Shown: one piece after another, positions 22,277 to 50,052 of the stretch | Layout: every line of letters begins with the position of its first letter | Position numbering within the stretch: the first letter of the stretch is position 1 | Source of the DNA: Lentisphaeria bacterium | GTDB taxonomy: Bacteria; Verrucomicrobiota; Lentisphaeria; Victivallales; Victivallaceae | Assembly (NCBI GenBank): GCA_017505415.1 | Contig: JAFVPG010000384.1 | Span: forward strand, 1-50,052 | DNA length: 50,052 bases | Direction of reading: 5' to 3' | The notes under the pieces: model-generated | The model's database searches: none | What the model saw: only the letters and a program-made list of their open reading frames with translations | Told to the model about the DNA's origin: nothing | Translations under genes and position numbers: made by a program

Positions 22277-23476
22277 ATGAGTAAGATTACTGCAAATCAC
22301 GTTTTCACCTCGGAATCAGTCTCCGAAGGTCACCCCGACAAAGTCGCTGATCAGATTTCAGATGCAATTCTGGATGCCTGTTTGAAACAGGACCCCGAAA
22401 GCCGTGTGGCATGCGAAACACTCTGCACCACTGATCTCATCGTCATCTCCGGCGAAATCACAACCAATGCAAAAGTAAACTGGCAGGAGATCGCCCTCAA
22501 CGTCGTCCGTGACATCGGTTACACCGATGAAAACGTCGGCTTCTCCGCAGACAATGCAAAAGTCATGGTCGCCATCCACAAACAGTCAGCAGACATTTCC
22601 CAGGGGGTTACAGAAGCCACCAATGCCACTCAGGAACAGGGGGCAGGAGATCAGGGAATGATGTTCGGTTATGCCTCCAATGAAACTGCTGAATTTATGC
22701 CCGCTCCCATCATCTATGCACACCGCATTGTAGAGAGACTGGCAGAACTCCGTCACACTCAACCGGAGAAATACAATTTCCTGCGTCCGGACTCAAAAAG
22801 TCAGGTCTCTGTTCACTACCAGAACGGCATTCCTCAACACATCGAATCTGTTGTTGTATCTCATCAGCACACACCTGATATGAAAATCGAAGATTTGACC
22901 GCTCTCGTCAAACAGGTGGTAAAAGAGGTCATCCCTGCAGAACTCATCAATGATGATATTGTTTATTATATCAATCCCACCGGACGTTTTGAAATCGGCG
23001 GTCCGCATGGCGATACCGGTTTGACCGGACGAAAAATCATCGTCGATACTTACGGCGGTGTCGGCTCTCACGGCGGCGGTGCATTTTCCGGTAAAGATCC
23101 ATCAAAAGTCGACCGTTCAGCCGCTTACATGTGCCGCTATATTGCAAAAAATATCGTTGGAGCCGGACTCGCTGCAAAATGCGAAATTCAAGTTGCTTAC
23201 GCAATCGGTGTTGCCGAACCTCTGAGCATCAATGTCGATACTTACGGGACCGGTAAACTCAAAAATGATGCCGATCTTGAGAAAGTCATACGCAAATGTT
23301 TCAACCTCAAGCCCAAAGCAATTATTGATACTCTCAAACTCAAATATCCCGGTAACGGCTGGTGCTATCGCGACAGTGCCGCTTACGGTCATTTCGGCAG
23401 AGATATTTTCCCGTGGGAAAAACTTGACAGAATCTCTGATTTGCAGAAAGCCGCAGAAGGTTTTGAATGTAGATAA
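22277..23476 (+). CDS. metK: S-adenosylmethionine synthase
   Basis: 399 aa. Motifs [54 protein letters not shown] and [19 protein letters not shown]. Confidence 0.95.
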
Positions 23477-23499
23477 GTCCTTGCAGCAAAGGAGATATT

Positions 23500-24480: not shown

Positions 24481-24492
24481 AGGAATAAAAAA

Positions 24493-31162: not shown

Positions 31163-32067
31163 AATCAATCATTTTCAATATCGTATTCCTTTTTGTACTT
31201 CCCTATCTGATGTACGGCATAGCTAAAAAAGTCAAAGCATTTTTTGCCCGCCGCAAAGGACCTTCCATCTGGCAGTACGGCTATGATTTGGCAAAACTGC
31301 TCCGCAAAGAAGAAGTTCTGAGTGATTTCTCCTGTCTGCGCAACGGTGGAGTTCTGACTCTGAGCGGAGTACTTGCCGCCGCAATGTTCATTCCGCAAAT
31401 CAGCGGCAGCAGCATTCTCAACCTCGGTTATTATGATTACATCCTGTTTATCTACATGCTGAGTTTCTCCCGCTTTTTTACCATTATTACGGCAATGGAA
31501 TCCGGATGCAGTTTTGAAGGGATGGGCAGTTCCCGTGAACTGATATTCTCTGTCACCGGTGAAATTGCCCTGATGATGACAGTCGCCTCATTGGCATTCT
31601 ACGGCAAAGCAGAAAATTTCAACGGAATTTTCAATGCCATCTCCAACGGCGGAACAGAAGGACTTATCATTGCCATAATCGCCTCATTCATACTGTTTGT
31701 TCTGATGCTTCTGGAAGGCAGCCGCATGCCGATAGATGATCCGGAAACTCACCTCGAACTGACAATGATCCATGAAGCCATGGTGCTTGACCAATCCGGT
31801 CCGCAGCTGGCGTTCATGAGTTTCAGCGGTATGGTAAAAGTTTATCTTTTTGCCTCTTTTATAATCTCTCTGATACTTGCAACATGCAAAACGAGCAGTT
31901 ACTACTGGCTGTTTTTTATACTCGGAATAATAATCATTTCAGTCATTATCGGTCTGATTGAATCTCTTCAGGCAAGATTGAGAATGGTACATGTTCAACA
32001 ATACATACTTTTTTCAGCAGCTATCTCGCTGATACTGCTGCTGAGCGTTATAATCTTCAAGGTGTGA
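31159..32067 (+). CDS. HyfC/HycD-like (NuoH-type) membrane subunit
   Basis: 302 aa. The N-terminal KVKAFFARRKGPSIWQYGYDLAKLLRKE matches the HycD/NuoH signature. 4-nt overlap with the upstream gene. Confidence 0.8.
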   Translation: MKSIIFNIVFLFVLPYLMYGIAKKVKAFFARRKGPSIWQYGYDLAKLLRKEEVLSDFSCLRNGGVLTLSGVLAAAMFIPQISGSSILNLGYYDYILFIYMLSFSRFFTIITAMESGCSFEGMGSSRELIFSVTGEIALMMTVASLAFYGKAENFNGIFNAISNGGTEGLIIAIIASFILFVLMLLEGSRMPIDDPETHLELTMIHEAMVLDQSGPQLAFMSFSGMVKVYLFASFIISLILATCKTSSYYWLFFILGIIIISVIIGLIESLQARLRMVHVQQYILFSAAISLILLLSVIIFKV

Positions 32068-32070
32068 CAA

Positions 32071-32715
32071 ATGGAAATATTTGAATTTATTGTAACATTA
32101 TTGCTTGTGGTGACGCTTCTGCGCATATCCATAAGCGGACGTTTGGAAGTCTATATAAAAATGCTTTCATTGCAGGGGCTTCTGCTTTTTTCTCTGGTAT
32201 TTTTCACTGTATCACATGAAAGCTATGTAACTCTGGCAGTGGCAATTATCGAAACATTGCTGCTGAAAGCGATATTTGTTCCATTTTATCTTAACAAGGT
32301 AATAAAAGAAAACAATATCAAACGTGAAACAGAGCCTTATGTGCCGCATATTTTCTCTCTGCTGATGGTCAGTCTCGGAATCGGACTCAGTCTGGCGGCG
32401 GCATTTTATATGAAGCAGGAAATACCGGAAGTAAAAATCGTACTGCTCGGCAGCGGTATCGCCATGATCCTCTGCGGCATGTTTGTGATTCTGAGCCGCA
32501 AAAAAATCATTACCCACGTTATGGGATACTGTGTGCTTGAAAACGGTATTTTTCTGCTCAGCTTGTCGGCGGCAAAAGAATTGCCGGTAATCGTCAGTCT
32601 CGGAGTCGCACTCGATGCTTTCATTTGGGTATTGCTGGCAGGCTTGCTGGTCAGAGTGATCCGTACCGAACTTAAGAGCCAATCTATTGATGAATTGAAA
32701 GGATTGAAGAATTAA
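32071..32715 (+). CDS. HyfE-like small membrane subunit
   Basis: 214 aa, about 6 TM helices. Size and position match HyfE. Confidence 0.65.
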   Translation: MEIFEFIVTLLLVVTLLRISISGRLEVYIKMLSLQGLLLFSLVFFTVSHESYVTLAVAIIETLLLKAIFVPFYLNKVIKENNIKRETEPYVPHIFSLLMVSLGIGLSLAAAFYMKQEIPEVKIVLLGSGIAMILCGMFVILSRKKIITHVMGYCVLENGIFLLSLSAAKELPVIVSLGVALDAFIWVLLAGLLVRVIRTELKSQSIDELKGLKN

Positions 32716-32716
32716 T

Positions 32717-34114
32717 ATGATTACATTTGGAGGTATGAGTCTTATTTTTGCTGCGTTGGCATGGTTTTTCAAAAAAGCAGAAAGCGGCAGCAGAATATTT
32801 TTTGTTTTTGCATTACTGCATTTACTGTCATCGATCATGCTGATGGTAAATTCTCTGTTTCCGTCATCATGCTGCGCAGCATGGCTGCCGCTGATGCCGC
32901 ACACAAATCCGCTGTGCAGTTATGTTTTGCTGATAGAATCTGTGGTGGTGATGGCAGTTGCATGGTACAATACCGACTTCTTTATGCGTCATGAAGAGAT
33001 CCCCTACCGGCACAAAAGTCCGATATATCATGCTTCGATCATCGGTTTCATCGGAGCAATGGATTTTGCGATATTATCAGACAATCTCGGAATGGTCTGG
33101 GTTTTCATTGAACTTTCAACTCTGCTGAGTGCGCTGCTTATCGCACACCACAACTCGGCACATTCTCTGGAGGCGACATGGAAATATGTATTCATCTGCT
33201 CTGTCGGTATCGCCTTTGCATTTGCAGGTATAGTATTTCTGCTGATAGCCACTGACGGCAATCTTGACCTCACAACAATGCAGCTTGACCGCAATAAACT
33301 TTTCGCTGTCAAAATTGCGCTGCCGTTTCTCATTATCGGATTCGGAACCAAAGCCGGTCTCGCTCCGGTTCACAACTGGCTGCCTGATGCCCACAGCGAA
33401 GCTCCGACACCGGTTTCAGCATTACTCTCTGCCTCACTGCTCAACAGTGCATTACTTCCTATCGTAAGGATTCTGCAGCTGACCGGAGGCACAGGATTGG
33501 AAAATTTTGCTTCTGCAATATTACTGACTATGGGTTTTCTCTCATTGATCGTTGCTGCGATTTTCATTCCGCATGCGTATAACTACAAACGCATGCTGGC
33601 ATATTCATCTGTTGAAAACATGGGGATTCTTGCCATTGCTCTGGGCTTGAACTGCCAAAGCGGCTTCCTTATCCACATGGCGGGACATTCATTTATCAAA
33701 TGCGCCCTGTTTCTGATCGCCGGCAATATTCTGAGCATGTACGGCTCAAAACTCATAAAAGAGGTCAGCGGCATGGTAAGAATCCACAAAGGTCTTGCCT
33801 ATCTTTATCTGGTCGGAATTCTGGCAATCATGGGATTTGTACCATTCATGCTGTTTGTCAGTGAATTTGTAATAATTGCGGCACTTTTCAACAGCAATAA
33901 ATTTTTGTGTGTTCTTTTCATCATATTACTGACATTTGTGATGTACGGGCTCGGCAGAAACATGCTGAAGATGGTACGTGGAAAGTCTTCTCTCTACAAA
34001 TCAGACTACCGTTTCAAAACTGCCGCTATTGCACCGATAGTCATTCTGCTGCTGATTGCGGCGGCATCATTCGGGGCAATGATGTACCGTGGCGTATTTG
34101 AAAATATTTTATAA
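32717..34114 (+). CDS. HyfF-like (NuoN/M-type) antiporter-like membrane subunit
   Basis: 465 aa. VWVFIELSTLLSALLI and the canonical GFGTKAGLAPVHNWLPDAHSEAPTPVSALLSA. Confidence 0.8.
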   Translation: MITFGGMSLIFAALAWFFKKAESGSRIFFVFALLHLLSSIMLMVNSLFPSSCCAAWLPLMPHTNPLCSYVLLIESVVVMAVAWYNTDFFMRHEEIPYRHKSPIYHASIIGFIGAMDFAILSDNLGMVWVFIELSTLLSALLIAHHNSAHSLEATWKYVFICSVGIAFAFAGIVFLLIATDGNLDLTTMQLDRNKLFAVKIALPFLIIGFGTKAGLAPVHNWLPDAHSEAPTPVSALLSASLLNSALLPIVRILQLTGGTGLENFASAILLTMGFLSLIVAAIFIPHAYNYKRMLAYSSVENMGILAIALGLNCQSGFLIHMAGHSFIKCALFLIAGNILSMYGSKLIKEVSGMVRIHKGLAYLYLVGILAIMGFVPFMLFVSEFVIIAALFNSNKFLCVLFIILLTFVMYGLGRNMLKMVRGKSSLYKSDYRFKTAAIAPIVILLLIAAASFGAMMYRGVFENIL

Positions 34115-34132
34115 ACGGATGGAGAGTATATT

Positions 34133-35611
34133 ATGATAGAAGTAAAAAATAATCAATGTATAGATTTAACGGATCTCCACAGTGTGCCGTATGATTATTT
34201 CATGGACACTGCAGTTGCACAGAAATTCCGTTGTATGAATATTGCCGCCCGCAGAAACAAAGAAAATATTGATGCGTTCATCCTGATGACTTCCGCCAGT
34301 TCAACTCTGTATCTGGAATACGTGGAATTCAAACCCGGAAAAGTTTACCCGTCAATCGGAAAAACCGTTCCGTCATGGATCAATTTTGAGCGTGAACTTG
34401 CCGAAAATTTCGGAGTGAAATATGCCGACAATCCGTGGCTCAAGCCAATCCGTTTTCCCAAAGATGCCTGCCATAAACTCTCAATGGCTGAATATCCTTT
34501 CTTCAAGGAAAACGGCAGCGGAGTTCATGAAGTAGCCGTTGGCCCGGTCCATGCAGGTGTGATTGAACCCGGACACTTCCGCTTCATGTGCAGGGGAGAG
34601 AAAATAGATCATCTTGAAATCCAGCTCGGCTATCAGCACCGCGGTATTGAAAATCTCATGTGTCAGGGCAAAATAGCCTCAAAACGTGTGCTTGCTGAAA
34701 GTATTTGCAGTGACAGTGCAGTTATAAATTCATATTTGTATTTCAATATTCTGGAAAACGCTCTCAAAATAACTGTCCCTGAACGTGCGCTTGCAATCAG
34801 AACAATTGCTGTTGAACTTGAAAAAGCCGCATTGCATCTTTCAACATTAAGCGGCATTGCAAATGACATCGGCTATGTGATGGGGGCGGCATTTGCCGGA
34901 GCGACAAGAACTTATATCATCAATTCACTGCAAAGCATCTGCGGCAACCGCTTCGGCAGAGGTCTCATGACTCTCGGCGGAGTCGCTTTTGACATTGATG
35001 ATGAATTAAACAGCAAATTGACTGACACTCTCAATATGGTTTATGATCGTGTATCTCATCTCCGCAACACCATGATGGAATCCCCCGGAGTGCGTTCACG
35101 ATTGGAGCTTACCGGAACTGTAAGCAAAGAAACAGCTGCGGCAACCGGTTTTACCGGAGTTGCCGGACGTGCTTCAGGAGTTGATATTGACGGACGCATT
35201 TTCATGGATAATCCGTTCTATAAACAACAGCCGGAAACAAAATATTCTTTCATCCGCAAAGGGGATGTTTTCTCACGCACATGCCTGCGTATTGATGAAG
35301 CACTGGCTTCATTGAAACTGGTGCTTGACATTCTGAAAAAACTTCCGTCAGGAGCAATCTTGAGTGCAGAATGCGGCAAATTTGCATCAAACATGCTTAT
35401 TCTCTCTATCGGAGAAGGTCCGAGAGGAGAATACATTCACATGGCAGTCACCGGACCCGATGAAAATGTACCGTTTGAATCATACAAGGTGAAAGATCCA
35501 TCTTTCATCAACTGGTTCGCACTTGCATTGAGTGTCCGCAATAATCAGATCAGCGATTTTCCGCTGTGCAACAAAAGTTTTGATCTTTCATATTCGGGGA
35601 ATGACTTATGA
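34133..35611 (+). CDS. HycE/HyfG-like NuoC-NuoD fusion (large-subunit homolog) lacking most [NiFe] ligands
   Basis: 492 aa. NuoC-like N-terminus (FERELAENFG). The NuoD/HycE core is GPVHAGVIEPGHFRF...LGYQHRGIE. The metal-site motifs are degenerate (see finding). Confidence 0.8.
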   Translation: MIEVKNNQCIDLTDLHSVPYDYFMDTAVAQKFRCMNIAARRNKENIDAFILMTSASSTLYLEYVEFKPGKVYPSIGKTVPSWINFERELAENFGVKYADNPWLKPIRFPKDACHKLSMAEYPFFKENGSGVHEVAVGPVHAGVIEPGHFRFMCRGEKIDHLEIQLGYQHRGIENLMCQGKIASKRVLAESICSDSAVINSYLYFNILENALKITVPERALAIRTIAVELEKAALHLSTLSGIANDIGYVMGAAFAGATRTYIINSLQSICGNRFGRGLMTLGGVAFDIDDELNSKLTDTLNMVYDRVSHLRNTMMESPGVRSRLELTGTVSKETAAATGFTGVAGRASGVDIDGRIFMDNPFYKQQPETKYSFIRKGDVFSRTCLRIDEALASLKLVLDILKKLPSGAILSAECGKFASNMLILSIGEGPRGEYIHMAVTGPDENVPFESYKVKDPSFINWFALALSVRNNQISDFPLCNKSFDLSYSGNDL

Positions 35612-36366
35612 TTCAGTCTTTACGTCTTTTTTTCAAGCAGGGCCGTCAGTATATCGGCAATCTTTTTACCGCACAGGTTGACAAGAAATACCGCGGATTT
35701 CCGCAATTCAAACCCAATCTCTGCACCCATTGCAATAAATGTATTTCCAACTGTCCCGTTCAGGCAATTTCTGAAGATTTGACCGTTGACATCGGCAAAT
35801 GCCAATTTTGCGGAGAGTGTATCAAACTCTGTCCTTCCGGAGCGGCAACTTTCACCAACTTCCACCACACAGGAGCAACCGATCGTGAAACCTTGAAAAT
35901 CACTCCCGGCACAACTCCTGAAGAGTATGAGAAAAACGCCATACAAATCCGCAAAGAAATCGTTGCCATGTTCGGACGTTCACTCAAACTTCGCAGTGTT
36001 TCAGCCGGCGGATGCAACGGCTGTGAACTTGAACTCAATGCCACCGGCAATGTAAACTTCGACCTCGGCAGATACGGAATTGATATTGCAGCCAGCCCGC
36101 GCCATGCCGACGGTATAATCATTTCCGGTCCGATAAGTTGCAATATGGCATACGCATTGCAGGCGACATACGATGCAGTTCCCGAACCGAAAATCGTCAT
36201 CCTGCTCGGATCATGTGCGATTTCAGGAGGAGTCTTTGCCAATTCTCCGGAACTTGACCGTGACTTCCTGGAAAAAAATAAAATAGATCTCTATATCCCC
36301 GGTTGTCCTCCGCATCCTCTGACGATTGCTAATGCCATCCTTGCATTTCTCAACCGCAAAAAATAA
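35608..36366 (+). CDS. Fusion of a 2x[4Fe-4S] ferredoxin (HycF-like) with a NuoB/HycG-like small subunit
   Basis: 252 aa. CTHCNKCISNCP and CQFCGECIKLCP are followed by GGCNGCE, GSCAISGG and PGCPPHP (NuoB-type cluster ligands). 4-nt overlap with the upstream gene. Confidence 0.8.
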   Translation: MIQSLRLFFKQGRQYIGNLFTAQVDKKYRGFPQFKPNLCTHCNKCISNCPVQAISEDLTVDIGKCQFCGECIKLCPSGAATFTNFHHTGATDRETLKITPGTTPEEYEKNAIQIRKEIVAMFGRSLKLRSVSAGGCNGCELELNATGNVNFDLGRYGIDIAASPRHADGIIISGPISCNMAYALQATYDAVPEPKIVILLGSCAISGGVFANSPELDRDFLEKNKIDLYIPGCPPHPLTIANAILAFLNRKK

Positions 36367-39027: not shown

Positions 39028-40116
39028 ATGAAAAAAATAATATTGATGTTTCTTCTGGTCTGTACATTCACTCAACTCAGTGCTTTAAGTACCGGAGATG
39101 AAGCGATTGAACTTAAAACAAAGTTTTACAATGGAAAAATCTTTAAAACCAAATTTTATATAGTCGATGCAAAAAATCAGAAAAAATTGAAAATTCTGGT
39201 CTTTGCCCGTCTGCTTGCAGATGATTTTCTGCACAGTGACTCTCTGATAAAAAATATCGGCAGCCGGAAAAACGTATCACTCGCATTTGCGGCGACCTCC
39301 GAAAATGAAATAGGAACATTTCTGAAAGAACGTCCCGCCTTCCAATATCCTCTGCTGTTCGACAGAAATGCTGTCAAAACATACATGGAACAAAATATGA
39401 TTTATCCCCGTGCATTCGTAATAAATTACGAAAATAAAATCATCTGGGACGGTGAAATGATCGACCTGCCCGACATGCTGGATAAATTTGAAAACGGCAA
39501 ATACGATTTAGAAGTCAACCGTAAAATCAACCGTCATCTCGCAGAAATGCAGAATGCCTTGAGAGCAGGCAGTGAATATCAGCTTGACCGTGCCGCCCGT
39601 GCCATACTTGCACTTGAGCCCGGCAATCTGGCATGTCTGCGCATGCGCATGTTCTCATTTGAAAACACCAACCGCTTCGCCGAAGCGTGGGCATTTCTTG
39701 ATGAATTCCGCCGTAAATACCCTAATGAAAAACACTTATACATGCTTCAGATGGATATGGCGGCACGCTACCGTCAATTCAGCGAAGCCGGAGCGCAAGT
39801 TGCCAGAGCATTTATCAACAGCAAACTCGGTACTGCCAATGATTGGCTGCTGCTCTCTTTTCTGCTGCTGAATCACTATGAAAACAATACAGAAGCTCTG
39901 AATTGTGCCGGAGACTTGCTTAAACGGCTGAACAGCAACTCATTCGGGAATGATATTATGCAAAAATCCCTCTTTTTCCGCACTTGTGCATTATTGCATT
40001 ACAAACGGTGCGATTTGATTGAAGCTGTCAAAAATCAATCACTGGCATGTGACGTTTCAAATGATGCTGAAAACCGGAAAATCTTAAAATATTATCAAAA
40101 TTTACAAAAAAAATAG
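39028..40116 (+). CDS. Secreted thioredoxin-fold (TlpA-like) protein without CxxC, with a helical-repeat C-terminal half
   Basis: 362 aa with a signal peptide. KILVFARLLADDF sits where TlpA-type proteins carry FWASWCxPC. YPLLFD...YPRAFVINYENKIIWDG matches the rest of the fold. Confidence 0.55.
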   Translation: MKKIILMFLLVCTFTQLSALSTGDEAIELKTKFYNGKIFKTKFYIVDAKNQKKLKILVFARLLADDFLHSDSLIKNIGSRKNVSLAFAATSENEIGTFLKERPAFQYPLLFDRNAVKTYMEQNMIYPRAFVINYENKIIWDGEMIDLPDMLDKFENGKYDLEVNRKINRHLAEMQNALRAGSEYQLDRAARAILALEPGNLACLRMRMFSFENTNRFAEAWAFLDEFRRKYPNEKHLYMLQMDMAARYRQFSEAGAQVARAFINSKLGTANDWLLLSFLLLNHYENNTEALNCAGDLLKRLNSNSFGNDIMQKSLFFRTCALLHYKRCDLIEAVKNQSLACDVSNDAENRKILKYYQNLQKK

Positions 40117-40261: not shown

Positions 40262-40591
40262 ATGACATTTTGGGCAGTAATTTTGTACGCGGCAGTTATT
40301 CTGGTCGCAATTCTTTTGATTGCATTGATTTTGGTACAGCAGTCCAAAGGCGGCGGTTTCGGCGGAGCCTTCGGAGGATTGGGAGAATCAATTCTCGGAG
40401 CGCAGGCTGGCAGTCATCTGACCAAACTGACTGTTATTTTGAGTACGATTTTCTTCGTTCTCGTACTGGCAATCGCAGTTCTCATCTCTCACGGCGGAGC
40501 AACAAAAAGTTCCGATGCTGCTATTGATTCACTGCTCTCTCAAGAAGCTGCAAAAACTGTTGAAACAACAGCTCCAGCGGCAAAAAAATAA
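40262..40591 (+). CDS. secG: Preprotein translocase subunit SecG
   Basis: 109 aa with two TM helices flanking LVQQSKGGGFGGAFGG, the SecG signature. Confidence 0.85.
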   Translation: MTFWAVILYAAVILVAILLIALILVQQSKGGGFGGAFGGLGESILGAQAGSHLTKLTVILSTIFFVLVLAIAVLISHGGATKSSDAAIDSLLSQEAAKTVETTAPAAKK

Positions 40592-40615: not shown

Positions 40616-41416
40616 ATGAAATACCCCTCCCGGACATTGAGTTTGCTGTTATGCTGTATGCTCACAGGGGGATTCTGCGCATACGGTAATGAAAAAACAA
40701 AGAAAAATGTCAGCAAAAATATTGATATTATCAAAAATTCAATGAAAATTACCGTCAATACCGTCATGCCTCCGATGGCAAAAACCACCGGAACTGTCGG
40801 CGCCAATGCTGCAAATTCAAAAAATGTCTGGGGGCAGGTTGATCTCAAATTCCGTACTGATAATGTAAAAGAAGCAAAAAAACGCTTTATTGACAATCCT
40901 GAACTTGACGTTGTCATTGCAACTTATCAGGATATTGAAAAAGATAAAAAGTCAAAAGACAAGAAAACTGTTAACAAAAATAAGTGTGTTGTTTTCAGCG
41001 GAAAACTGAAATATATCACTATCGAACAGGACGGGAATGACCACTACATGAAAGCATTGCTGCCGGGAATCATCTTCCGCAGATTTGCTTATGACCGCAC
41101 TCTCGACCGGAGCATACTTGCCGTAAAAATGACTTTGAAAGGAAACGGTAAAATTATCGGAACAGCCTACGGCAGCAATAAGTCTTTGACCAGAGATGTT
41201 CTGGAAAAATTTTTCAAATCTCTGCCGAAAAACTATGTTGATGCAAAAAATACCATCTACGGACGCTATGGTACTTCGTGGAATGTTATTGATGTAAATA
41301 AATATGAACTTGAGAAGATTCCCGGTCATGACAGTGATAATATGGTTCCCCGTACGGAATTTTTCGTGGATGACGGCAATTCTCCCCCAAAAAATGTAAA
41401 AAAACAAAAAAAATAA
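40616..41416 (+). CDS. Secreted hypothetical protein, first gene of the pilus-like cluster
   Basis: 266 aa with AAGGAG upstream. It has a Sec-type signal peptide and no class III prepilin motif. Lys-rich. Confidence 0.55.
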   Translation: MKYPSRTLSLLLCCMLTGGFCAYGNEKTKKNVSKNIDIIKNSMKITVNTVMPPMAKTTGTVGANAANSKNVWGQVDLKFRTDNVKEAKKRFIDNPELDVVIATYQDIEKDKKSKDKKTVNKNKCVVFSGKLKYITIEQDGNDHYMKALLPGIIFRRFAYDRTLDRSILAVKMTLKGNGKIIGTAYGSNKSLTRDVLEKFFKSLPKNYVDAKNTIYGRYGTSWNVIDVNKYELEKIPGHDSDNMVPRTEFFVDDGNSPPKNVKKQKK

Positions 41417-41440
41417 TAAATAAACGGAAGACAGCATTTT

Positions 41441-43303
41441 ATGGCAGTACAGTCAACAATTTTAACTATTGATGTCGGTAGCGATACCGTCAAAATGGCG
41501 GAGTTTTCTTTTGCTCCCGAAGGCGGCGGTCTTATACTGGAAAAATTTGCATTTGAACCGCTTGCGCAAGGTGATGATGAAGCGGTTGTTGCGTTTGCCC
41601 GTGTCTATCAATTTATGCTGCAGACAAACAATTTCCGGTCAAAACAGGTTCGTATTACCATTTCCGGTCAGGCAGCATTTTCCCGTTTGAGCAAACTGCC
41701 GGAATTAAGCGGTGATGATGACATGATCAGCAAGATCATTGAATTTGAAGCCAAACAAACAGTTCCGTACACCATGGATGAAATCATCTGGGACTATCAG
41801 CTTATCAAACATACCATTCCGCCGGTCACAGAATTTGATGATCCGCACGATGAATATGAAGCATTGTTTGTCGCTGCCAAACGTGATATTATTACTGCAT
41901 ATACCGACGTTGTTCTGGAGAGCGGCCTTGATGTTATCTCCGTAAATATTGCTCCTGTATCAATGGCCAATGCATATTATGCATGTGTCAAACGTGATCC
42001 CGGCGCATGTGAAATGCTGCTCAATATCGGAGGACAGTCAAGCTCTCTGGTCATTTGTGAAGGCGACAGAATTTTTGTCCGCAGTATTCCTATTGCCGGA
42101 GATGCCATCACTCAGCAGATAAGCAAAGAATTTGCTATTCCGTTTGCAGAAGCAGAAGATTTGAAGGGCAAACATGGCTTTGTCGCACTCGGCGGTGCTT
42201 ATGAGGACCCCGAATCTGAAGTTGCCGCAACTATTTCAAAAATCGCCCGTAACGTAATGACCCGTCTGCACGGCGAAATCAGCCGCTCCATAAATGTTTG
42301 GCGTTCACAGCACAACGGAAGCAAACCGACTGCACTTTATCTTGCAGGCGGAGGTTCGCTGATACAGTATGTAACTGAATTTTTCACTGAAAAACTTCAT
42401 ATCAAAGTCGATTACCTCAACGTTTTCAGTGCCATGGGCATCGGCAGCGGTGTTGACCGTGAAGCATTGCTTGACGTTGCTCCCATGTTTGCTGAACTTG
42501 CAGGAATGGGTGTCCGCAGTGCGGCAGAAGTTCCGGTCGACATCAACCTCGTTCCTGAAACTATCAAAATTCAGGCGGATATTCAATCCAAGAAAATGTA
42601 TTTCTTTGCCAGTTGTGCAACTCTGGTGGTTTCACTGCTTATTTTCTATGCAGGTGTCAGCAAAATGCTTGAATTCGACCGTTCCCGTGTGGAACGTGTC
42701 CGCGGCAAAGTCGAAGAAGCTCAGGCACTTTTTGAAAAAATCAAAGAACAGAACAGATATGTTACATCGGAGAAAGATAAGTATAACCGTTATATCAAGC
42801 TGATCAAGGACCGTACTGCATGGATCGAAATCATGAATGATTTGCAGAATATCATTCCCGATACAACCTGGTTCGTAAAACTTGAAGGCATTGCGGATAT
42901 TGAAGCTGACCGCAAAGCTGAACAGGAAGCCGCACAGAAAGCCCGTCAGGAAGGTGCTCCTGCAACTGAAAATAATAACGGCGGCGGTTTTGCCGGTATT
43001 TTCGGCGGAAATCAGCCGGCTCCACCACCAGATCCCGGCATGAATCCTGAAATGGGTGACGGAATGGCAGCTCCTCAGAATCCTCAAAAAGAAATCAATG
43101 CCCTGAAACTCAAGGGCTATTCATTGCTGCTCAAACAGGAAATTCTTACTGACTACCTGAAAGCAAACATCAAAAAGTCAAAAATGTTCAAAAACAGTGA
43201 CCCGAATGATGTTGAGATCGTTGTTGTTCTGGATGAAGTTGCTCCCAACAACATTGCCGCATTCACACTCTACCTTAAACTCAATAACCCGATGAGATAT
43301 TAA
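41441..43303 (+). CDS. PilM-like actin-fold protein fused to a PilN-like TM/coiled-coil region
   Basis: 620 aa. The N-terminal LTIDVGSDTVKMAEF...FEAKQTVPYTMDEIIWDY is PilM-like. A TM helix (FFASCATLVVSLLIFYAGV) lies near residue 400, followed by a coiled coil and a Pro/Gly/Asn low-complexity linker. Confidence 0.75.
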   Translation: MAVQSTILTIDVGSDTVKMAEFSFAPEGGGLILEKFAFEPLAQGDDEAVVAFARVYQFMLQTNNFRSKQVRITISGQAAFSRLSKLPELSGDDDMISKIIEFEAKQTVPYTMDEIIWDYQLIKHTIPPVTEFDDPHDEYEALFVAAKRDIITAYTDVVLESGLDVISVNIAPVSMANAYYACVKRDPGACEMLLNIGGQSSSLVICEGDRIFVRSIPIAGDAITQQISKEFAIPFAEAEDLKGKHGFVALGGAYEDPESEVAATISKIARNVMTRLHGEISRSINVWRSQHNGSKPTALYLAGGGSLIQYVTEFFTEKLHIKVDYLNVFSAMGIGSGVDREALLDVAPMFAELAGMGVRSAAEVPVDINLVPETIKIQADIQSKKMYFFASCATLVVSLLIFYAGVSKMLEFDRSRVERVRGKVEEAQALFEKIKEQNRYVTSEKDKYNRYIKLIKDRTAWIEIMNDLQNIIPDTTWFVKLEGIADIEADRKAEQEAAQKARQEGAPATENNNGGGFAGIFGGNQPAPPPDPGMNPEMGDGMAAPQNPQKEINALKLKGYSLLLKQEILTDYLKANIKKSKMFKNSDPNDVEIVVVLDEVAPNNIAAFTLYLKLNNPMRY

Positions 43304-43305
43304 TT

Positions 43306-44562
43306 ATGAATCCTGTATTTATAAAAAGATTTTTGAAATATAATAAACCTCTGGTTGCTGTAATCGGAGTGTCATTGCTGGTTGTACTTTTCCTGCTCGT
43401 CATTGCTGTTTTGAAATATCTCGAAATGGTTGCGGCAAATAGTGAAGTCAACAGAATGCGTGACATTATAGCTGAGCTTCAGGATCCACGCAAAAATAAA
43501 GTCGCTGTTATTGAAGGCAACCTCGATCTGCTGAAAAAAGATTATGTAATATATCAGAAAAAGAATGAAGAACTGCGCCCCCATATCGGTCATCCGTATG
43601 AAAAAGCTCTCGATGCCATGGCTAAAGAACTCGGAATGAAAAACGGTGAAGATTTAACTGTAAAATTCTATGAATTTGTCAATAAACGTAACGAACATGG
43701 CAATAATGAACAGATTTCTATTATTTTCAGACGTTTTGAACAGCAGTTCAAGCCTCATATCTGGCGCAAGGCTGTTGAAGCATTTATGAATGAAGCCAAT
43801 TCAAAAACTGCGGATAAAAAGGAAACAAAACGTAAAATATCATTTGAAGAAGTCACTTCCGCTAACGTCAATGATATTTTCCTCCAGTCACTCGGTATCC
43901 CCCGAGAAATGTCAGGACGCGGTATCCAACATTGCAAAGACATTATAGAAAAAATAAAATTCGAACTGAATAAACACGTTATCAGTAAAAATATTGAAGT
44001 GAATAAAGATGCTGTTGATTTTTCTCTGACCACTCCCGGTTTGACATCTCCTGCTCAAATCGCAGAGTCCATGCAGAATATGGAAATTGTCAGCGATATG
44101 ATTTCAAGAATAGTAAATGATATTCCGTCTGCAAGCAAGGGCTCCTCTCTGAAATCATTTGAAAGCATCCGCTATAACGGCAAATCTCCTCTTCCTGATG
44201 ACAACAAGGCCGAAGTTTACAAATATAATCTGAAAATGATCGGCACCATGACTGCATTACGTCAGTTGTTCAAGTCTCTGAATGATGCAATTTACGATGG
44301 CAGATTGTATATCGTACGCAATGTGAAACTCAATGTTCCGCTGGAATCAGACGGCGCAGCTGTTGTCGTTGGATTCGCAGAAGAACCTGCCGAATACGTT
44401 GACGGTAAAAAAGTCGAAATCAAATATAAAGATGACTCAGATCTTGCAGTGCATTTGCGCCGTAACTACGGTAAAGTACTTATCGGTGCAAATCCATTCT
44501 TCAATATCGAATTGGATGTTGAATACGTTATTTTGAAACAACATGAATTTCAGAGCAGATAA
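43306..44562 (+). CDS. TM-anchored pilus-assembly-like protein (PilO / Amuc_1100-like by position and architecture)
   Basis: 418 aa. N-terminal TM helix (VAVIGVSLLVVLFLLVIAVL), a coiled-coil region, and a C-terminal beta-rich domain. Starts 2 nt after the PilM-like gene stop. Confidence 0.55.
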   Translation: MNPVFIKRFLKYNKPLVAVIGVSLLVVLFLLVIAVLKYLEMVAANSEVNRMRDIIAELQDPRKNKVAVIEGNLDLLKKDYVIYQKKNEELRPHIGHPYEKALDAMAKELGMKNGEDLTVKFYEFVNKRNEHGNNEQISIIFRRFEQQFKPHIWRKAVEAFMNEANSKTADKKETKRKISFEEVTSANVNDIFLQSLGIPREMSGRGIQHCKDIIEKIKFELNKHVISKNIEVNKDAVDFSLTTPGLTSPAQIAESMQNMEIVSDMISRIVNDIPSASKGSSLKSFESIRYNGKSPLPDDNKAEVYKYNLKMIGTMTALRQLFKSLNDAIYDGRLYIVRNVKLNVPLESDGAAVVVGFAEEPAEYVDGKKVEIKYKDDSDLAVHLRRNYGKVLIGANPFFNIELDVEYVILKQHEFQSR

Positions 44563-44576
44563 TCAGGAGGAATGAA

Positions 44577-45926
44577 GTGAACTTTTTGAAAAAACATTAT
44601 GAAAAAGTTGCATTGCTTGCACTTTTCATTATCTTTGCATTGCTTTTGGTCCACTTGTATACCATTATTCAGGCAACGGGTGAGGTTAAAGATTCCGACC
44701 TGCAAATCCCGACCAGAGACCCTGATTATCAGCTTGCAGATTTGAAAAAGATTGAATTCAATCTGCCTGAGCTTTTCAAATATAACACTGTTTGGAATGC
44801 CTCAACAGCCCGCAAAAGCGAAAACAGCAAACATTTCAGCGACGTAATGGCCGTTTTTAAAATCACCCGTTGCGGTTATTGCAACCATCTGATTCCACGA
44901 ACCTATATGGAAAACGCTGAAAAATGTCCGTATTTCAATTGCAGTTCAAAAGAAAATCTTAAAAAGCCCAGAGAAGAAAAAAAGGGAGAAAACGGTACTG
45001 TACAACTTGACTCTGACGAAGATGGTATTCCCAACCTTGTTGAATTGGTTTATAATTTGAACCCATACGATGCTTCTGACGCTGAACTTGACCTCGATGA
45101 TGACGGCTTTATCAATTACTACGAATATCAGCAGATGAAAGATGCTGATGAATTCAAAAAAATATTTTCCGAAGAACAGAAAAACTTCTCTTCTGAAGAA
45201 CAGAAAAATCTTATTCTGAAAGATCCCAAAAAACATCCCGGACTGTACCTCGGTCTGAAAATTGACCGCCTCGAACGCCAGCCTCTCAACATGGACCTGC
45301 TCGGCATTACTGTCGATAAGAAAAATAAAAACAGAGCCGCATGGCCGATTCAAATAAAAATCAAAGAACAGTATATCGGTACCGGCAGAAAAAGAAAATT
45401 GCATAAAGAAAGAACAAATGTTACCTACATCGGTGAAAAAATCAAACTTGAAACCGGTGAATATACTATTGAAGATATTAAAGATGAACCCATCCCTGTC
45501 GCCAAACAGACCAAAGACTCCGGCGATACAAATTATTACATAGTACTCAAAAAAATACAAAACAAAAACAAAGATAAAAACAAATCCATCATATTCGATG
45601 TCAAAAAAGGTATAGAGGCATTCGATCCTGAATACAGAGCATATTTGTCCGATATCTGGAATTACAAAAAATATGACGGCAGAGTTGGTAATACCATACG
45701 AATGGGAGTGGCAAATATCGGTTTTACAAGATATACCATCAGAGAAATCAACAAGCGCGATAATTCTGTCACTCTGGAAACTCCAGACAAAAAGAATGTG
45801 GTTATCAAAACTGTACCTCTCATGCCCCAAGATGTTATCAATGCTATGAATAAAAATAAAGATAAAGAAAAAAGTAAAGATAATGACGACGGTAATTCAA
45901 ATAATCCGTCCGGCATACAGAGATAA
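44577..45926 (+). CDS. TM-anchored hypothetical protein with Cys4 zinc-ribbon and DxDxDG calcium-binding-like motifs
   Basis: 449 aa with a GTG start and AGGAGG 6 nt upstream. TM helix VALLALFIIFALLLVHLY. Zinc-ribbon CGYCNHLIPRTYMENAEKCPYFNC. Motifs DSDEDGIPNLVE and DLDDDGFINYYE. Lys/Asn-rich tracts. Confidence 0.6.
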   Translation: MNFLKKHYEKVALLALFIIFALLLVHLYTIIQATGEVKDSDLQIPTRDPDYQLADLKKIEFNLPELFKYNTVWNASTARKSENSKHFSDVMAVFKITRCGYCNHLIPRTYMENAEKCPYFNCSSKENLKKPREEKKGENGTVQLDSDEDGIPNLVELVYNLNPYDASDAELDLDDDGFINYYEYQQMKDADEFKKIFSEEQKNFSSEEQKNLILKDPKKHPGLYLGLKIDRLERQPLNMDLLGITVDKKNKNRAAWPIQIKIKEQYIGTGRKRKLHKERTNVTYIGEKIKLETGEYTIEDIKDEPIPVAKQTKDSGDTNYYIVLKKIQNKNKDKNKSIIFDVKKGIEAFDPEYRAYLSDIWNYKKYDGRVGNTIRMGVANIGFTRYTIREINKRDNSVTLETPDKKNVVIKTVPLMPQDVINAMNKNKDKEKSKDNDDGNSNNPSGIQR

Positions 45927-45961
45927 AAAGGAATTATTAATTTTACATAAAGGATAAGTAT

Positions 45962-48394
45962 ATGATGACAAAAAAATGCAAACATTTAGGAGCAGTATCA
46001 CGCTATGCGCTGCTGTTGATGATGGTCGCAGGGTATGGAGCATTCGCTGAAGCTCCGGCAAATGCTTCCGCTAAAGACATGAAGATCAAGGAAATTATTG
46101 ATACCGAAGCTCAAGTACGAAACGAAATATTGAAAGATATTGATCTTCAGTGGAAAAATCTTGAAACACAGCTCAATGATAAGAAAAATTTGACTGAAAC
46201 AAAATTCAAAGAACTTTCAGACAACTGCGATGAATTGCTCAAACAGCTGAAAAGAATTCCGGGATTTGCTGCAAAAGATAAATACGAAAAACTCAGTGAC
46301 TTCCGTGAAAAAATCCGTAGCAAATATATAAAACATGTCATGAAAATAGCTGACAAACTTTTCAGTGAAGGTGCTTATGACCTTGCAAAAGGCAAATGCT
46401 CTGAAATCCTTGCTATTGATAAAGTTAACGGTCCGGAAATTATTGCACCCTTTATCGAAAAGTGCCAAAAGGCAGAAGAAAGTGCAAAATATCGTGACAG
46501 CATCAATATGAAAAAATTTAATCCTTCTTATGAAAAAGATCTCCAATCCATAGATGAATTGATGCGCAAAGCTCAAACCTATTATAAGAACGGCAAATAC
46601 AATGAAGCATTGAATATCCTTGAAAATATTTATCTCATTGATCCTTTCAATGTCCGCGCCACCACATTGCTTGACAAAACTTACGGCAAAATCTACAGTA
46701 TGGCAAGAGCCCGTCACCGTGTAACTTCCCAGGAAATGCTCGCGCAAGATGAATGGATCTGGATCATGCCGGTCAAAAACAGCGGCAGTACAAAAAGTTC
46801 CGTCAGCCGCGATCCGGAAGTGAAATTCGCAAAAAATGCGATCGAAGCAAAAATGGAAAAAATCGTTTTCAATAAATTTGAAGCTCCCGGACTTGACATC
46901 AAAAGTATTTTGAACGACCTTGCAAAACGCAGTAAAACTAACGATACAGTCGACGGAACCGGTATTTCCATCATTCCGCAATTCGATGCAAAAGATCTGA
47001 ATGAAAAAAAATTCAAAAAAATCCACATGCGTTTTTCAAATATCCCGCTCAGCGATATTCTGCGTTATCTCTGTTTGAACCTCGGAATTAAATACAAAGT
47101 AAATCCGCAGGGTGAAGTTGTCGTCGGTACTTCTATTGACGATGTGGTTTCCGAACCGCGTTATTTCTCTATCCGTGACGAACTGGCACAGGATATTCTG
47201 AGTGGTGACGGCGGCGACGACAGTGCTGCTGTTTCAACCGAAGATGCAGAAGATTCAACGGGAGACGGAGAAGAATCCAATGCTGCACAGTCAGCAAACA
47301 GAACAAACTCTGCTGATGAACAGAAGATGAAAAAATATTTTGAGGCACGCGGTGTCGAATTTCCAGCCAAAAGCTCCATCACCTACAATCGTAAAACACA
47401 TAAATTAAGCGTAAAAAATACTGAAGAAAACCTGCGCAAATTCGATGATCTGCTCCGTCAGATACAGTCCATTGAAGTTCCAATGATCATGACAGAAGTC
47501 AAATTCATTGAAATTGCAGAAGAGGATTTCAACCAGCTCGGTTTTGACTGGAACTTCTCTATTTCCGATGCCGGACGCAAAAACGGTTTGTGGAACTTCT
47601 CTGTGTCAAGTAACTTCATCTCTCAGGAAGAAGCCAATGACAGACCTTCCGCATTTATCCAAAACCTCAATCTGCTGCCGAACTTTGATTCTGAATGGGG
47701 CGGTTTGAAACCCTCTCTCAATGTTACTGTTCACGCTCTCAGCCAGAACGACAGAGTGGAAGTCCTTACAGCTCCCAGACTCATCTCCAAAAACGGTAGC
47801 GAAGCCTCTATCAAGATGATAACTGAAACACGTTATCCCGATTCATGGGAAGCTCCCGAACTGGAAACTGAAAGTGACAATATTTCATCTGTATCTTTCC
47901 CTGTTCCTGAACTCGGCGATCCCGAACCTGTCGGTATCACCCTCAAAGTAACTCCAAACGTCAGCGGTAATATTATCACCCTCGACCTGCATCCTGAAAT
48001 CATTACCTTCCTCGGAAGCGGTAATTCTTCTTACCCAGTCTCCGTTCAACAGGGTATCAGGGACAGTTCCGGCGCATTGGTCCCCACAATGATGAATGAA
48101 GTATTCAATGTCTGGATGCCGGAAATGGGCGTCCGCCGCATTGATGCAAAAGTAAAAGTTGAAGACGGCGAAACTATTGTTCTCGGCGGTATTATCAATA
48201 ACTCCATTGAACGCAGAGAAGAAAAAATGCCGTTACTCGGCAGTATTCCTCTTTTCGGTCGTCTTTTCCAGAACCGTACCGAAGAATCATCCAAAACAAA
48301 TCTGTTGATTTTCGTTACTGCACGTTTGATAAACAGCGACGGTCGTCTTGTTAATCAGGCAACTGATAACGGAACACCGCATTTTAATTTCTAA
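45962..48394 (+). CDS. Secretin (type IV pilus / T2SS outer-membrane channel), paralog 1
   Basis: 810 aa. Signal peptide, helical N-terminal region, and an acidic insert (SGDGGDDSAAVSTEDAEDSTGDGEES). Secretin core from VPMIMTEVKFIEIAEEDFNQLGFDW to IVLGGII...MPLLGSIPLFGRLFQ...SKTNLLIFVTARLI. Confidence 0.85.
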   Translation: MMTKKCKHLGAVSRYALLLMMVAGYGAFAEAPANASAKDMKIKEIIDTEAQVRNEILKDIDLQWKNLETQLNDKKNLTETKFKELSDNCDELLKQLKRIPGFAAKDKYEKLSDFREKIRSKYIKHVMKIADKLFSEGAYDLAKGKCSEILAIDKVNGPEIIAPFIEKCQKAEESAKYRDSINMKKFNPSYEKDLQSIDELMRKAQTYYKNGKYNEALNILENIYLIDPFNVRATTLLDKTYGKIYSMARARHRVTSQEMLAQDEWIWIMPVKNSGSTKSSVSRDPEVKFAKNAIEAKMEKIVFNKFEAPGLDIKSILNDLAKRSKTNDTVDGTGISIIPQFDAKDLNEKKFKKIHMRFSNIPLSDILRYLCLNLGIKYKVNPQGEVVVGTSIDDVVSEPRYFSIRDELAQDILSGDGGDDSAAVSTEDAEDSTGDGEESNAAQSANRTNSADEQKMKKYFEARGVEFPAKSSITYNRKTHKLSVKNTEENLRKFDDLLRQIQSIEVPMIMTEVKFIEIAEEDFNQLGFDWNFSISDAGRKNGLWNFSVSSNFISQEEANDRPSAFIQNLNLLPNFDSEWGGLKPSLNVTVHALSQNDRVEVLTAPRLISKNGSEASIKMITETRYPDSWEAPELETESDNISSVSFPVPELGDPEPVGITLKVTPNVSGNIITLDLHPEIITFLGSGNSSYPVSVQQGIRDSSGALVPTMMNEVFNVWMPEMGVRRIDAKVKVEDGETIVLGGIINNSIERREEKMPLLGSIPLFGRLFQNRTEESSKTNLLIFVTARLINSDGRLVNQATDNGTPHFNF

Positions 48395-48411
48395 TGAAGG
48401 AGCAATGAACT

Positions 48412-50052
48412 ATGTTTAATAAAGATAAAGTTATCGGTGGTGCATTTCTCCTCGGCATTTGTTCAGCTGCGCTCATGGCAGTCGAAACTCCTTCTGAAGC
48501 CGTTATGGCAAAAGATAAGTTTTCTCCTGATATGCGTTACAGTGTCAGCCGTCATACCGTGGGGTTTTTGAAAAAAGAAAATGATGCAAAAAAGAGAGTT
48601 GCAGAGGCAAATCAATTATTTTTGCAGGAACGTTACAAAGAAGCCTGCGCAATCTATATTGATGCCAAAAAACTTCTGAATGAACTCAATAAATCATCTA
48701 TCGAAAAATCATTTCAAGACAAAATAGCCGAATGTGACCGCCAGATAGAATTGTGCTACTACGAAATGGCCAATCAGGCTCTCGCAAAAGCTGATGCAAG
48801 TATTGCCGTCAACGATTATGATGAAGCTATTCGCTTGTGCCGTGAAGCCGCAGAAAAATATCCCGCATGCAAACCCGTGATGGATAAAAAAATTGCCCGC
48901 TATACAGAAATCCGCAAAACTGTGGCAATCCAGAACGATACCTCTGAAAACGCACTGCTGCCGGAAAAAGGACTTGAAGATTACGAAATTTCCGTAATGC
49001 TGCGCCGCGCACGCGCCCTCGTCAACGCAGGCTTGTATGACAAGGCAAAAAAAGTTTATAATGATATTTTGCTCAAAAATCCTTACCGTTCCGATGTATT
49101 ACAGGATTTGCGCGCAGTAAATGCTTATATACGCAAGAGCGGTCAGAGACGTGTTTTGAGTTCACAACGTGCAGCTATCACTGCCAATGAACTTGAATGG
49201 GCTCTGCCGATTTACAGAGAAACTGAAAAAACTGTCGAAACCGTTGAAAAACCGGTTGAAAAAGTTGTTGTGGAATCAAATTCTCTTACAAAAAAACTCA
49301 AAGCAATCACCATCAAATCAATTGAATTTGAAGATGTTAAGCTGCGTACACTTTTGACCACTTTGATGGTTCTGGCAGAACGCAATGACCCCGAAGGTAT
49401 CGGTGTCAATATCTTCCTGCGCCAAAATCTTGATGCTCAGAGCGAAGGCGGAGAAGCTGCTGCTGCTGAAAATACAGCCAATCAAAATGAGCAAAAAACT
49501 GAAAACAATGATGCCGAAAACGAAAATGAAGAAAATGAAGATGAGGAAGAAAACGAAGATGAATCTTCTGAAGAAGAAGATGAGTCAAGCTGGACTGAAC
49601 TTGAAAAAACAGTTCTCCCTCTGACCACAATGAATAATAAATCTCTCGAAGATATTATCCGTGCAATCTGTACAAGTGCCAAACTGCGTTACCGTGTTGA
49701 AAAATACGCAGTCGTCATCGAACCGCTTGACATGCCGCAGTCAGATATGATCACCAGAATATTCCCGGTCGACGCCAGTAATATCGGTGATGCCACCGGC
49801 AAAGAAGATTTGCAGCGTCTTTTTGACGGTGTAACCTTCCCCGTCGGTTCCAATATCGTTTATGATGCAAAACTCGGCCGCATTTTCGTAACCAATACCC
49901 CTGACAATCTCAAACGTATTGAAGAAATTTGCGAAGAAACCCTGAATATTCAGGAACCAATGGTCCAAGTTCAGCTCCGTATTATTGAAATAAGCCAGAA
50001 AGATTTGCACGCTCTCGGCTTCAATTATACTCTCAGAGACAACTCGACCACC
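48412..50052 (+). CDS. Secretin paralog 2 (3'-truncated by the window end)
   Basis: Not in the supplied track. I read an open frame from ATG 48412 (GGAG 9 nt upstream) to the window end, 547 codons. It has a signal peptide and a helical N-terminal region. An acidic insert (ENENEENEDEEENEDESSEEEDESS) is present, and the secretin core starts at MVQVQLRIIEISQKDLHALGFNY. Confidence 0.75.
   Translation, partial: MFNKDKVIGGAFLLGICSAALMAVETPSEAVMAKDKFSPDMRYSVSRHTVGFLKKENDAKKRVAEANQLFLQERYKEACAIYIDAKKLLNELNKSSIEKSFQDKIAECDRQIELCYYEMANQALAKADASIAVNDYDEAIRLCREAAEKYPACKPVMDKKIARYTEIRKTVAIQNDTSENALLPEKGLEDYEISVMLRRARALVNAGLYDKAKKVYNDILLKNPYRSDVLQDLRAVNAYIRKSGQRRVLSSQRAAITANELEWALPIYRETEKTVETVEKPVEKVVVESNSLTKKLKAITIKSIEFEDVKLRTLLTTLMVLAERNDPEGIGVNIFLRQNLDAQSEGGEAAAAENTANQNEQKTENNDAENENEENEDEEENEDESSEEEDESSWTELEKTVLPLTTMNNKSLEDIIRAICTSAKLRYRVEKYAVVIEPLDMPQSDMITRIFPVDASNIGDATGKEDLQRLFDGVTFPVGSNIVYDAKLGRIFVTNTPDNLKRIEEICEETLNIQEPMVQVQLRIIEISQKDLHALGFNYTLRDNSTT

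Follow-up and report, generated by a model that had tools for sequence, protein, structure and literature searches.

What kind of envelope machine is encoded by the six genes that fill positions 40616-50052 of contig JAFVPG010000384.1, which belongs to a Lentisphaeria bacterium of the family Victivallaceae (assembly GCA_017505415.1)? The whole stretch analysed, 50,052 nt, is called the window below. An earlier reading of its letters, without database searches (the sequence-only reading), had likened the six genes to the Akkermansia locus Amuc_1102-1098. In our sequence comparisons all six products come out as homologues of Akkermansia Amuc_1102, 1101, 1100, 1099 and 1098, in the same order. 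We consider it fairly probable that the cluster is the Lentisphaerota orthologue of the MUL2/PilQ locus, i.e. a scaffold of the type found in the Planctomycetes-Verrucomicrobia-Chlamydiae (PVC) superphylum, derived from pilMNOPQ (or GspL/M/C/D), with a remote motor and a polymer-related role. It is a divergent two-secretin form of a known system. The genes, designated g1 to g6, and their upstream neighbour are the following.

40262..40591, + strand: secG, conserved immediate upstream neighbour; Pfam SecG found on the identical gene in metagenome contig L001
40616..41416, + strand: g1, 266 aa; Sec-exported protein of the Amuc_1102 (MUL2A) family
41441..43303, + strand: g2, 620 aa; PilM-PilN fusion of the Amuc_1101 (MUL2B) family
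43306..44562, + strand: g3, 418 aa; bitopic inner-membrane protein, Amuc_1100-like/PilO-like fold
44577..45926, + strand: g4, 449 aa; Amuc_1099-family protein, bitopic in the inner membrane, at the PilP/GspC position
45962..48394, + strand: g5, 810 aa; secretin paralogue S1
48412..50052, + strand: g6, second secretin paralogue (S2), truncated at the window boundary; 797 aa in full (L001, 16971-19364)

The listing of open reading frames (ORFs) gives these six in one direction, five of them complete, with g6 (start at 48412, 547 codons inside the window) running past the window end. The intergenic gaps from g1 to g6 are 24, 2, 14, 35 and 17 nt; secG ends 24 nt before g1. Thus, the genes are indeed co-directional and closely spaced, and the order proposed for them from the letters alone, a secreted protein, a PilM-PilN fusion, two proteins with transmembrane (TM) helices and two secretins, agrees with Pfam (PilM_2 in g2, 5e-33; Secretin in g5, 5.5e-32, and in the full-length g6, 3e-35) and with hydropathy, from which all TM helices and signal peptides given here were determined. 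A scan of the operon for promoters and terminators produced counts no higher than expected from shuffled sequence.

To follow the cluster beyond position 50052 we used two metagenome contigs, L001 and L002, found via the exact g2 protein; L001 is 99.96% identical to the window across 13.1 kb, and the in-window part of g6 is identical to the L001 copy (547/547). In both contigs g6 is followed by a 417-nt gap and then by prs, rplY (L25), pth and rpsF, so the cluster ends at the second secretin. A standard pilBCD set with a pilin, which would have made this an ordinary pilMNOPQ operon, was not present downstream.

Family assignment was made at two levels: for the window copies and for families of their orthologues. 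With g2 we retrieved 75 related loci, each extending as much as 10 kb to either side of g2, and built orthologue families by iterated local searches with hidden Markov models (HMMs); the families of g1, g3 and g4 comprised 71, 63 and 60 members, respectively, and every member was scanned against NCBIfam. For each of the six window proteins an Amuc model was the best or second-best NCBIfam match, all six scores being below the curated equivalog cut-offs. The Pfam version used returned nothing significant for g1, g3 and g4; the newer Pfam families PF28178 (Amuc_1102) and PF28028 appear in precomputed annotations only. By these sequence searches the window copies of g1, g3 and g4 are among the most divergent members of their families. 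The Akkermansia comparison locus (L077) was checked and is a genuine Amuc_1102-1098 locus.

In g2 a cytoplasmic actin-like PilM domain (∼41441-42520) is followed by a TM helix (residues 388-406, 42602-42658) and by a periplasmic coiled-coil with a PilN-like tail. The protein matches Amuc_1101_fam over residues 1-590 of 620 (E-value 1.4e-123); as its 414 bits fall short of the cut-off of 650, g2 is a homologue and not a certified equivalog. The curated model TIGR01175 for pilM, on the other hand, is passed with 139.3 bits (cut-off 133). The evidence for the PilN-like tail comes from the family: Pfam PilN (PF05137) was matched by 16 of 50 g2 C-terminal tails (best 3.8e-5), a family-level signal only, and the best match of the C-terminal family profile among PDB sequences was PilN of M. 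xanthus (3jc8_Na, E 0.0029). None of the window proteins matched Pfam PilN or PilO. That the periplasmic part of g2 and g3 might be recognisable as paralogues, in the manner of a PilN/PilO pair, was considered and rejected, since hhalign aligned the TM helices only.

The third product, g3, has its TM helix at residues 17-35. The window copy matches Amuc_1100_fam weakly (E 0.031), while 53 of the 63 orthologues match it, the best with 1.4e-16. The g3 profile found the ORFs at the Amuc_1100 position in two collinear stretches (2e-5 and 3.5e-4, in a small database), and its top matches among all PDB sequences were 6lad and 6kny, both Amuc_1100 (E 0.006); by hhalign, g3 aligned only weakly with two Akkermansia sequences, at E 8e-4 and 25% probability. 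From 26 sequences an AlphaFold2 model of g3 was built (predicted local distance difference test, pLDDT, 74.6), in which the N-terminal TM helix continues as a long helix, followed by a helical region and an alpha/beta core. The comparison with Amuc_1100 that had been suggested for this gene gave a definite outcome: in the Foldseek search against PDB the ten best matches were all Amuc_1100 (E 2.8e-5 to 1.5e-4, probability 1.00; TM-scores to Amuc_1100 chains of 0.60-0.71 per target). The matches after these were PilO of P. aeruginosa (2rjz, 5uvr) and PilO of the M. xanthus type IVa pilus machine model (3jc8_Oa), with a TM-score of 0.66 per target and E 0.1 for 5uvr. According to the model, therefore, g3 has the Amuc_1100/PilO fold though a PilO sequence motif is undetectable. 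The statement that the central proteins lack PilO and PilP motifs was correct for sequence and has to be amended for structure, with g3 being PilO-like in fold. Like all models reported here, that of g3 rests on a shallow alignment, as deepening in a large protein database brought at least 19-28 proteins per search. A database protein of 403 aa (P0020) combines ABC-transporter Pfam domains with 64% identity over 35% of g3 and probably arose from a chimeric gene call or from misassembly.

For g4 we found a single N-terminal TM helix and no lipobox. After the TM helix comes a zinc-ribbon-like motif of four cysteines (C99, C102, C117 and C122), invariant in the family, then a pair of TSP3-like, Ca-binding DxDxDG repeats and, towards the C-terminus, an all-beta region. 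The match of the window copy to Amuc_1099_fam (E 7e-4) is confined to the TSP3 segment; among the 60 orthologues 55 match this model (best 3.2e-26), and the Lentisphaerota g4 profile finds the ORFs at the Amuc_1099 position in Akkermansia with 3e-39 and 3e-38, in two collinear stretches. Thus, 43306-44562 and 44577-45926 do resemble their Akkermansia families, Amuc_1100 and Amuc_1099 respectively, weakly as window copies and clearly as orthologue families; lack of such resemblance would have spoken against the Akkermansia comparison. The AlphaFold2 model of g4 (pLDDT 73) closes with a C-terminal helix and a low-confidence tail. Foldseek against PDB gave nothing below E 0.02 and no PilP/GspC entry among the 50 matches listed; the search was run with the whole model, and a small domain can be missed in this way. 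With insignificant matches to small barrels only (ribosomal uL2, eIF5A, HEX-1), g4 as a homologue of PilP/GspC is unsupported though not disproved. The L001 copy of g4 (13137-14516) has 459 aa as compared with 449 aa in the window, with differences confined to the final residues of the low-complexity tail; the length difference is an indel or frameshift polymorphism.

The first product, g1, carries a Sec-type signal peptide and not a class III signal. Its match to the NCBIfam model Amuc_1102_rel is weak (E 0.0017), and so is the precomputed match to Pfam PF28178; 42 of the 71 orthologues match Amuc_1102_rel, with 1.4e-21 as the best value. The Lentisphaerota g1 profile did not match the ORFs at the Amuc_1102 position in metagenome-assembled genomes (MAGs) of two Akkermansiaceae (E above 0.4). 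As this direct comparison failed, the link to Akkermansia was made through NCBIfam and through the sequence of PDB entry 7DSZ (Amuc_1102), which the g1 family profile matches over almost its full length (3.8e-7). In one Victivallaceae MAG (L055) the PilM-PilN fusion is preceded by tandem Amuc_1102-like genes, 8673-9323 and 9330-9998.

With NCBIfam, orthologue families, PDB sequence matches and the g3 fold in agreement, the likeness to the Amuc_1102-1098 locus is well founded; a second secretin sets the Lentisphaerota locus apart. In g5 a signal peptide is followed by a helical/TPR N-terminus, an acidic linker, N-domains and the C-terminal secretin barrel; the full-length g6 has the same architecture, with a signal peptide and a Pfam TPR match. 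No AMIN domain was returned by the Pfam scan of the secretins. Amuc_1098_fam is matched by g5 with 1.6e-80 (271 bits, cut-off 750) and by the in-window part of g6 with 2.7e-34. The two are 29% identical to each other (BLASTP 6e-51).

In a neighbour-joining tree the secretins of the first and second positions, with g5 and g6 respectively among them, formed two clean clades, each mirroring the species tree, with the single Akkermansia secretin outside both. In the 44 loci with both copies the mean identity was 0.375 for S1-S1 pairs and 0.404 for S2-S2 pairs; pairwise identities of S1 and S2 correlated with r = 0.95, and S1 and S2 of the same genome were 0.22-0.35 identical. Two clades with equal conservation indicate an old duplication with both copies maintained. 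From these sequence comparisons we conclude that Lentisphaerota and Kiritimatiellota carry two anciently duplicated, co-inherited TPR-secretins, and Akkermansia one. To our knowledge, the conserved two-secretin arrangement of this locus has not been described earlier; no description of it was found in the literature examined on the Amuc_1098-1102 locus.

A possible second secretin in one Akkermansiaceae MAG (L078) was considered and rejected: it is only a detached C-terminal fragment and gives no evidence of duplication. The main secretin of that locus (13037-15472) lacks a stretch of the barrel (HMM positions 618-708), and a 274-aa ORF with the secretin C-terminus (18808-19632) lies 3.3 kb downstream, past Sel1/TPR-repeat ORFs. 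The split reflects faulty assembly or else a rearrangement.

How widespread is the cluster? The closest relatives of g2 (80-81% identity) are found in Victivallaceae/Lentisphaeria MAGs from sheep colon and human gut. The complete order g1-g2-g3-g4-secretin-secretin occurs in ∼50 loci of Lentisphaerota and Kiritimatiellota; thus the synteny sought in other genomes does exist. Relatives were seen in two Planctomycetota loci, one with a PilM-PilN fusion, a secretin and a weak g3-like match (L080), the other with the PilM-PilN fusion only (L079). Being shared by Lentisphaerota, Kiritimatiellota and, in part, Planctomycetota, the module is to be seen as an ancient PVC envelope machine rather than a speciality of Akkermansia or of host adaptation. 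The gene secG lies directly upstream of g1 in 39 of ∼76 related loci (within L006-L073), with gaps of 12-195 nt (∼1.2 kb with one inserted gene); it was not seen there in two Akkermansiaceae loci. Co-transcription of secG, which codes for a subunit of the Sec translocon, with the cluster is possible.

Neither a class III prepilin motif nor a GspE-type Walker A motif was found in any frame of the 50-kb window. Absence of pilin, PilB/PilT ATPase and PilC genes, which the sequence-only reading had noted for the region upstream of the cluster near secG, therefore holds for the window as a whole; the peculiarity attached to it does not, as such absence is normal for operons of the pilMNOPQ type. 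Separation of pilMNOPQ from pilin and motor genes is common, e.g. in P. aeruginosa, and prepilin-like genes are plentiful in other parts of PVC genomes, with examples in L044 and L074. Of the 75 related loci, three had a prepilin-like ORF and one a GspE-type Walker A; with motor and pilin genes this rare, separation from them is the rule for the cluster.

The Akkermansia locus has been studied from several sides. The products of Amuc_1098-1102 are abundant proteins of the outer-membrane fraction (PMC5332112); Amuc_1098 exceeds all other outer-membrane proteins in abundance and is placed in the outer membrane by immuno-electron microscopy, and homologues with its TPR-secretin architecture were earlier noted in Lentisphaera araneosa (PMC4960237). 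Two citing reports describe the locus as MUL2, important for mucin acquisition (bioRxiv 10.64898/2025.12.30.696933; PMC13174399), and the first of them describes Amuc_1100 as PilO/PilN-like (bioRxiv 10.64898/2025.12.30.696933). The second, a 2026 ISME J paper, follows MUL2 through the orders of Verrucomicrobiota; according to it, MUL genes are needed for mucin accumulation inside Akkermansia, fluorescent fucoidan accumulates in aquatic Akkermansiaceae with MUL2, Amuc_1102 is predicted to form a homotrimer, and its structure 7DSZ is 'similar to an archaeal type IV pilin' (PMC13174399). A term search of that paper returned no mention of Lentisphaerota or Kiritimatiellota (PMC13174399). The whole cluster in Lentisphaerota has apparently not been described before. 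Crystal structures exist for Amuc_1100 and Amuc_1102. The Akkermansia machinery, said to be mechanistically undescribed, is thus less obscure than was supposed, having a name, a reported part in mucin acquisition and two crystal structures.

The membrane topologies accord with an inner-membrane ring joined to channels in the outer membrane. Given the observed homology, gene order, topologies, g3 fold and secretin duplication, we infer the following contacts, dependence on remote pilins and motor, and physiological role. The cytoplasmic actin-like PilM domain of g2 would be tethered through the protein's own TM helix to the periplasmic PilN-like tail; this tail could pair with the PilO-like g3 and the pairs assemble into an inner-membrane ring. 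In the PilP/GspC position, g4 would link the ring to the periplasmic N-domains of the secretins, and g5 and g6 would form the outer-membrane channel, as a mixed ring or as two channels. An accessory subunit, periplasmic or on the surface, may be provided by g1. Prepilin peptidase, (pseudo)pilins, platform protein and ATPase would come from other parts of the genome. By analogy with Akkermansia, the role is probably capture or uptake of polymeric substrates (glycans) in the gut, or attachment to them; classical twitching motility is less likely.

Several points weigh against this account. As no motor or pilin genes lie near the cluster (no pilin, prepilin peptidase, PilB/PilT ATPase or PilC in the 50 kb or in the flanking 2.4 kb), the coupling to a motor is assumed. 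Amuc scores below the equivalog cut-offs do not guarantee functional equivalence, and with no structural match of g4 to PilP/GspC its bridging role follows from position and topology only. Specialisation on mucin is not known for the host, and the cluster is not flanked by glycan-degrading genes; the function of MUL2 is known here through citing papers only.

One could argue for a platform of a type II secretion system (T2SS), in which g2 would act as GspL, g3 as GspM, g4 as GspC and g5/g6 as GspD, and proteins (e.g. hydrolases) would be exported by a pseudopilus piston with no surface pilus. We regard this as unlikely, though it is the alternative to be taken most seriously. An actin-like cytoplasmic domain, one TM helix and a periplasmic domain within a single polypeptide make up the architecture of GspL; g4 is bitopic as GspC is, and not a lipoprotein as PilP. 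The NCBIfam models of GspD (4.6e-34) and PilQ (5.7e-35) are matched by the secretins about equally well, the gspD score being 118 bits at a cut-off of 351. A single g3 orthologue weakly matches GspM/XpsM (0.0053), and the planctomycete g2 relative in L080 weakly matches gspL (6e-5). However, g2 itself has no gspL match and scores above the cut-off of the curated pilM model; the genes follow the pilMNOPQ order, M-N-O-x-Q, and the nearest structure to the g3 fold apart from Amuc_1100 is PilO. T2SS genes are usually clustered, and no gspE, gspF or gspG-K are adjacent here. Furthermore, the Akkermansia orthologue is tied to substrate acquisition in the two reports cited above.

Another alternative, which we hold to be improbable, is a machine free of pilin and ATPase, in which the two secretins together with the PilM-N/PilO-like ring would make up a gated conduit importing polymers to the periplasm, with g1 trimers as a periplasmic or surface element. 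It would account for the scarcity of prepilin-like ORFs and Walker A motifs in the window and in the related loci, for the Sec signal of g1, for the predicted Amuc_1102 homotrimer, and for the reported mucin and fucoidan accumulation (PMC13174399). However, pilMNOPQ genes often stand apart from motor and pilin genes, and distant prepilin-like genes abound in PVC genomes. Moreover, PilM-type proteins are known only as adaptors of motors of the PilB/PilT/PilC type. In its widest form, an equally doubtful one, the idea concerns a PVC-wide, pilMNOPQ-derived import or capture machine without pilus fibre or dedicated ATPase, in which a heteromeric or dual secretin channel would pass glycans into an enlarged periplasm and g1 would be a non-pilin structural element. 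If true, this would be the first secretin-based system for macromolecular nutrient uptake and the first obligate two-secretin machine.

A scaffold of a competence (DNA-uptake) pilus of the HofMNOPQ/ComMNOPQ type is very improbable: operons of the hofMNOPQ type are likewise separate from their pilins and ATPases, and the secretins do match HofQ DNA-uptake porin models (4.7e-26), but with scores far below the cut-off and below those of Amuc_1098, MshL, PilQ and GspD, comEA, comEC and dprA were not found among the window ORFs scanned, and the phenotype reported for Akkermansia concerns mucin and not DNA.

The orthologue of MUL2/PilQ with a remote motor thus remains our preferred account, and it matters for several reasons. 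The locus encodes the much-studied immunomodulatory Amuc_1100; as the PilO-equivalent of an inner-membrane ring, this protein would be seen differently in the debate over a surface-exposed 'pilus' protein. The 60-71 highly diverged orthologues per component are useful for covariation analysis and structure modelling. Finally, a conserved two-secretin arrangement has been brought to light.

The remainder of the window is occupied by housekeeping genes: an Rnf operon, metK/ahcY, an Ech/Mbh-like complex, purA, rodA and secG. An Rnf-type complex (RnfC, RnfD, Fe-S subunit) is encoded at 15797-21157 (- strand); metK, a pfkB-family kinase gene and ahcY at 22277-25899 (+ strand); and a complex-I-like membrane hydrogenase module of the Ech-Mbh type at 29225-36366 (+ strand). 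The Rnf, metK/ahcY and Ech-Mbh-type modules suit an anaerobic fermentative gut bacterium. Between rodA/ftsW and secG, at 39028-40116 (+ strand), lies a gene for a 362-aa protein with a signal peptide and no Pfam match; phmmer (E≤1e-4) found matches to it only in the closest relatives (L006, L007, L008 and L011). Three further ORFs, at 1256-3190 (- strand, 644 aa), 10668-11675 (+ strand, 335 aa) and 11692-13200 (- strand, 502 aa), could be assigned to no Pfam family (E≤1e-5); adjoining these Pfam-less ORFs, the ORF at 13261-14643 (- strand) has a Laminin_G_3/ConA-like lectin domain.

How does the cluster compare with known systems? It shares with the T2SS set GspC-GspL-GspM/GspD the GspL-like single polypeptide of g2, a GspM/PilO-like g3, a g4 that is TM-anchored like GspC, and GspD-like secretins. 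It differs in that g2, g3 and g4 have no match to the gspL, gspM and gspC models, and in that the window contains no adjacent genes for GspE, GspF and the GspG-K series.

With the type IVa PilMNOPQ systems of P. aeruginosa and M. xanthus it has in common the order of an actin-like PilM, bitopic, putatively PilN-like and PilO-like proteins and a secretin. Here, however, PilM and PilN are fused in g2, and no window protein has a Pfam PilO or PilP match. PilP is a lipoprotein with a beta-sandwich that binds the secretin N0 domain, whereas g4 is a TM-anchored protein with zinc ribbon, TSP3 repeats and beta region. Further differences are the TPR N-termini of the secretins, the extra Amuc_1102-like first gene and the presence of two secretins.

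From the Akkermansia locus Amuc_1102-1098 (MUL2 and PilQ) the window cluster, which belongs to another phylum (Lentisphaerota, Victivallaceae), differs in having two paralogous secretins instead of one. Taken singly, the products of g1, g3 and g4 are hardly picked up by models of the Akkermansia families, and g3 exceeds Amuc_1100 in length by ∼100 aa, with additional helices inserted between the TM/coiled-coil segment and the core. The surroundings differ as well: secG directly upstream was not seen at the Akkermansia loci, and the downstream neighbour is prs in the window lineage and an M42 aminopeptidase gene in Akkermansia. Neither cluster includes a pilin or an ATPase gene, and both encode a bitopic Amuc_1099-like protein containing TSP3 repeats, along with a secretin whose N-terminus carries TPRs. 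In sum, the same five gene families stand in the same order in the two loci.

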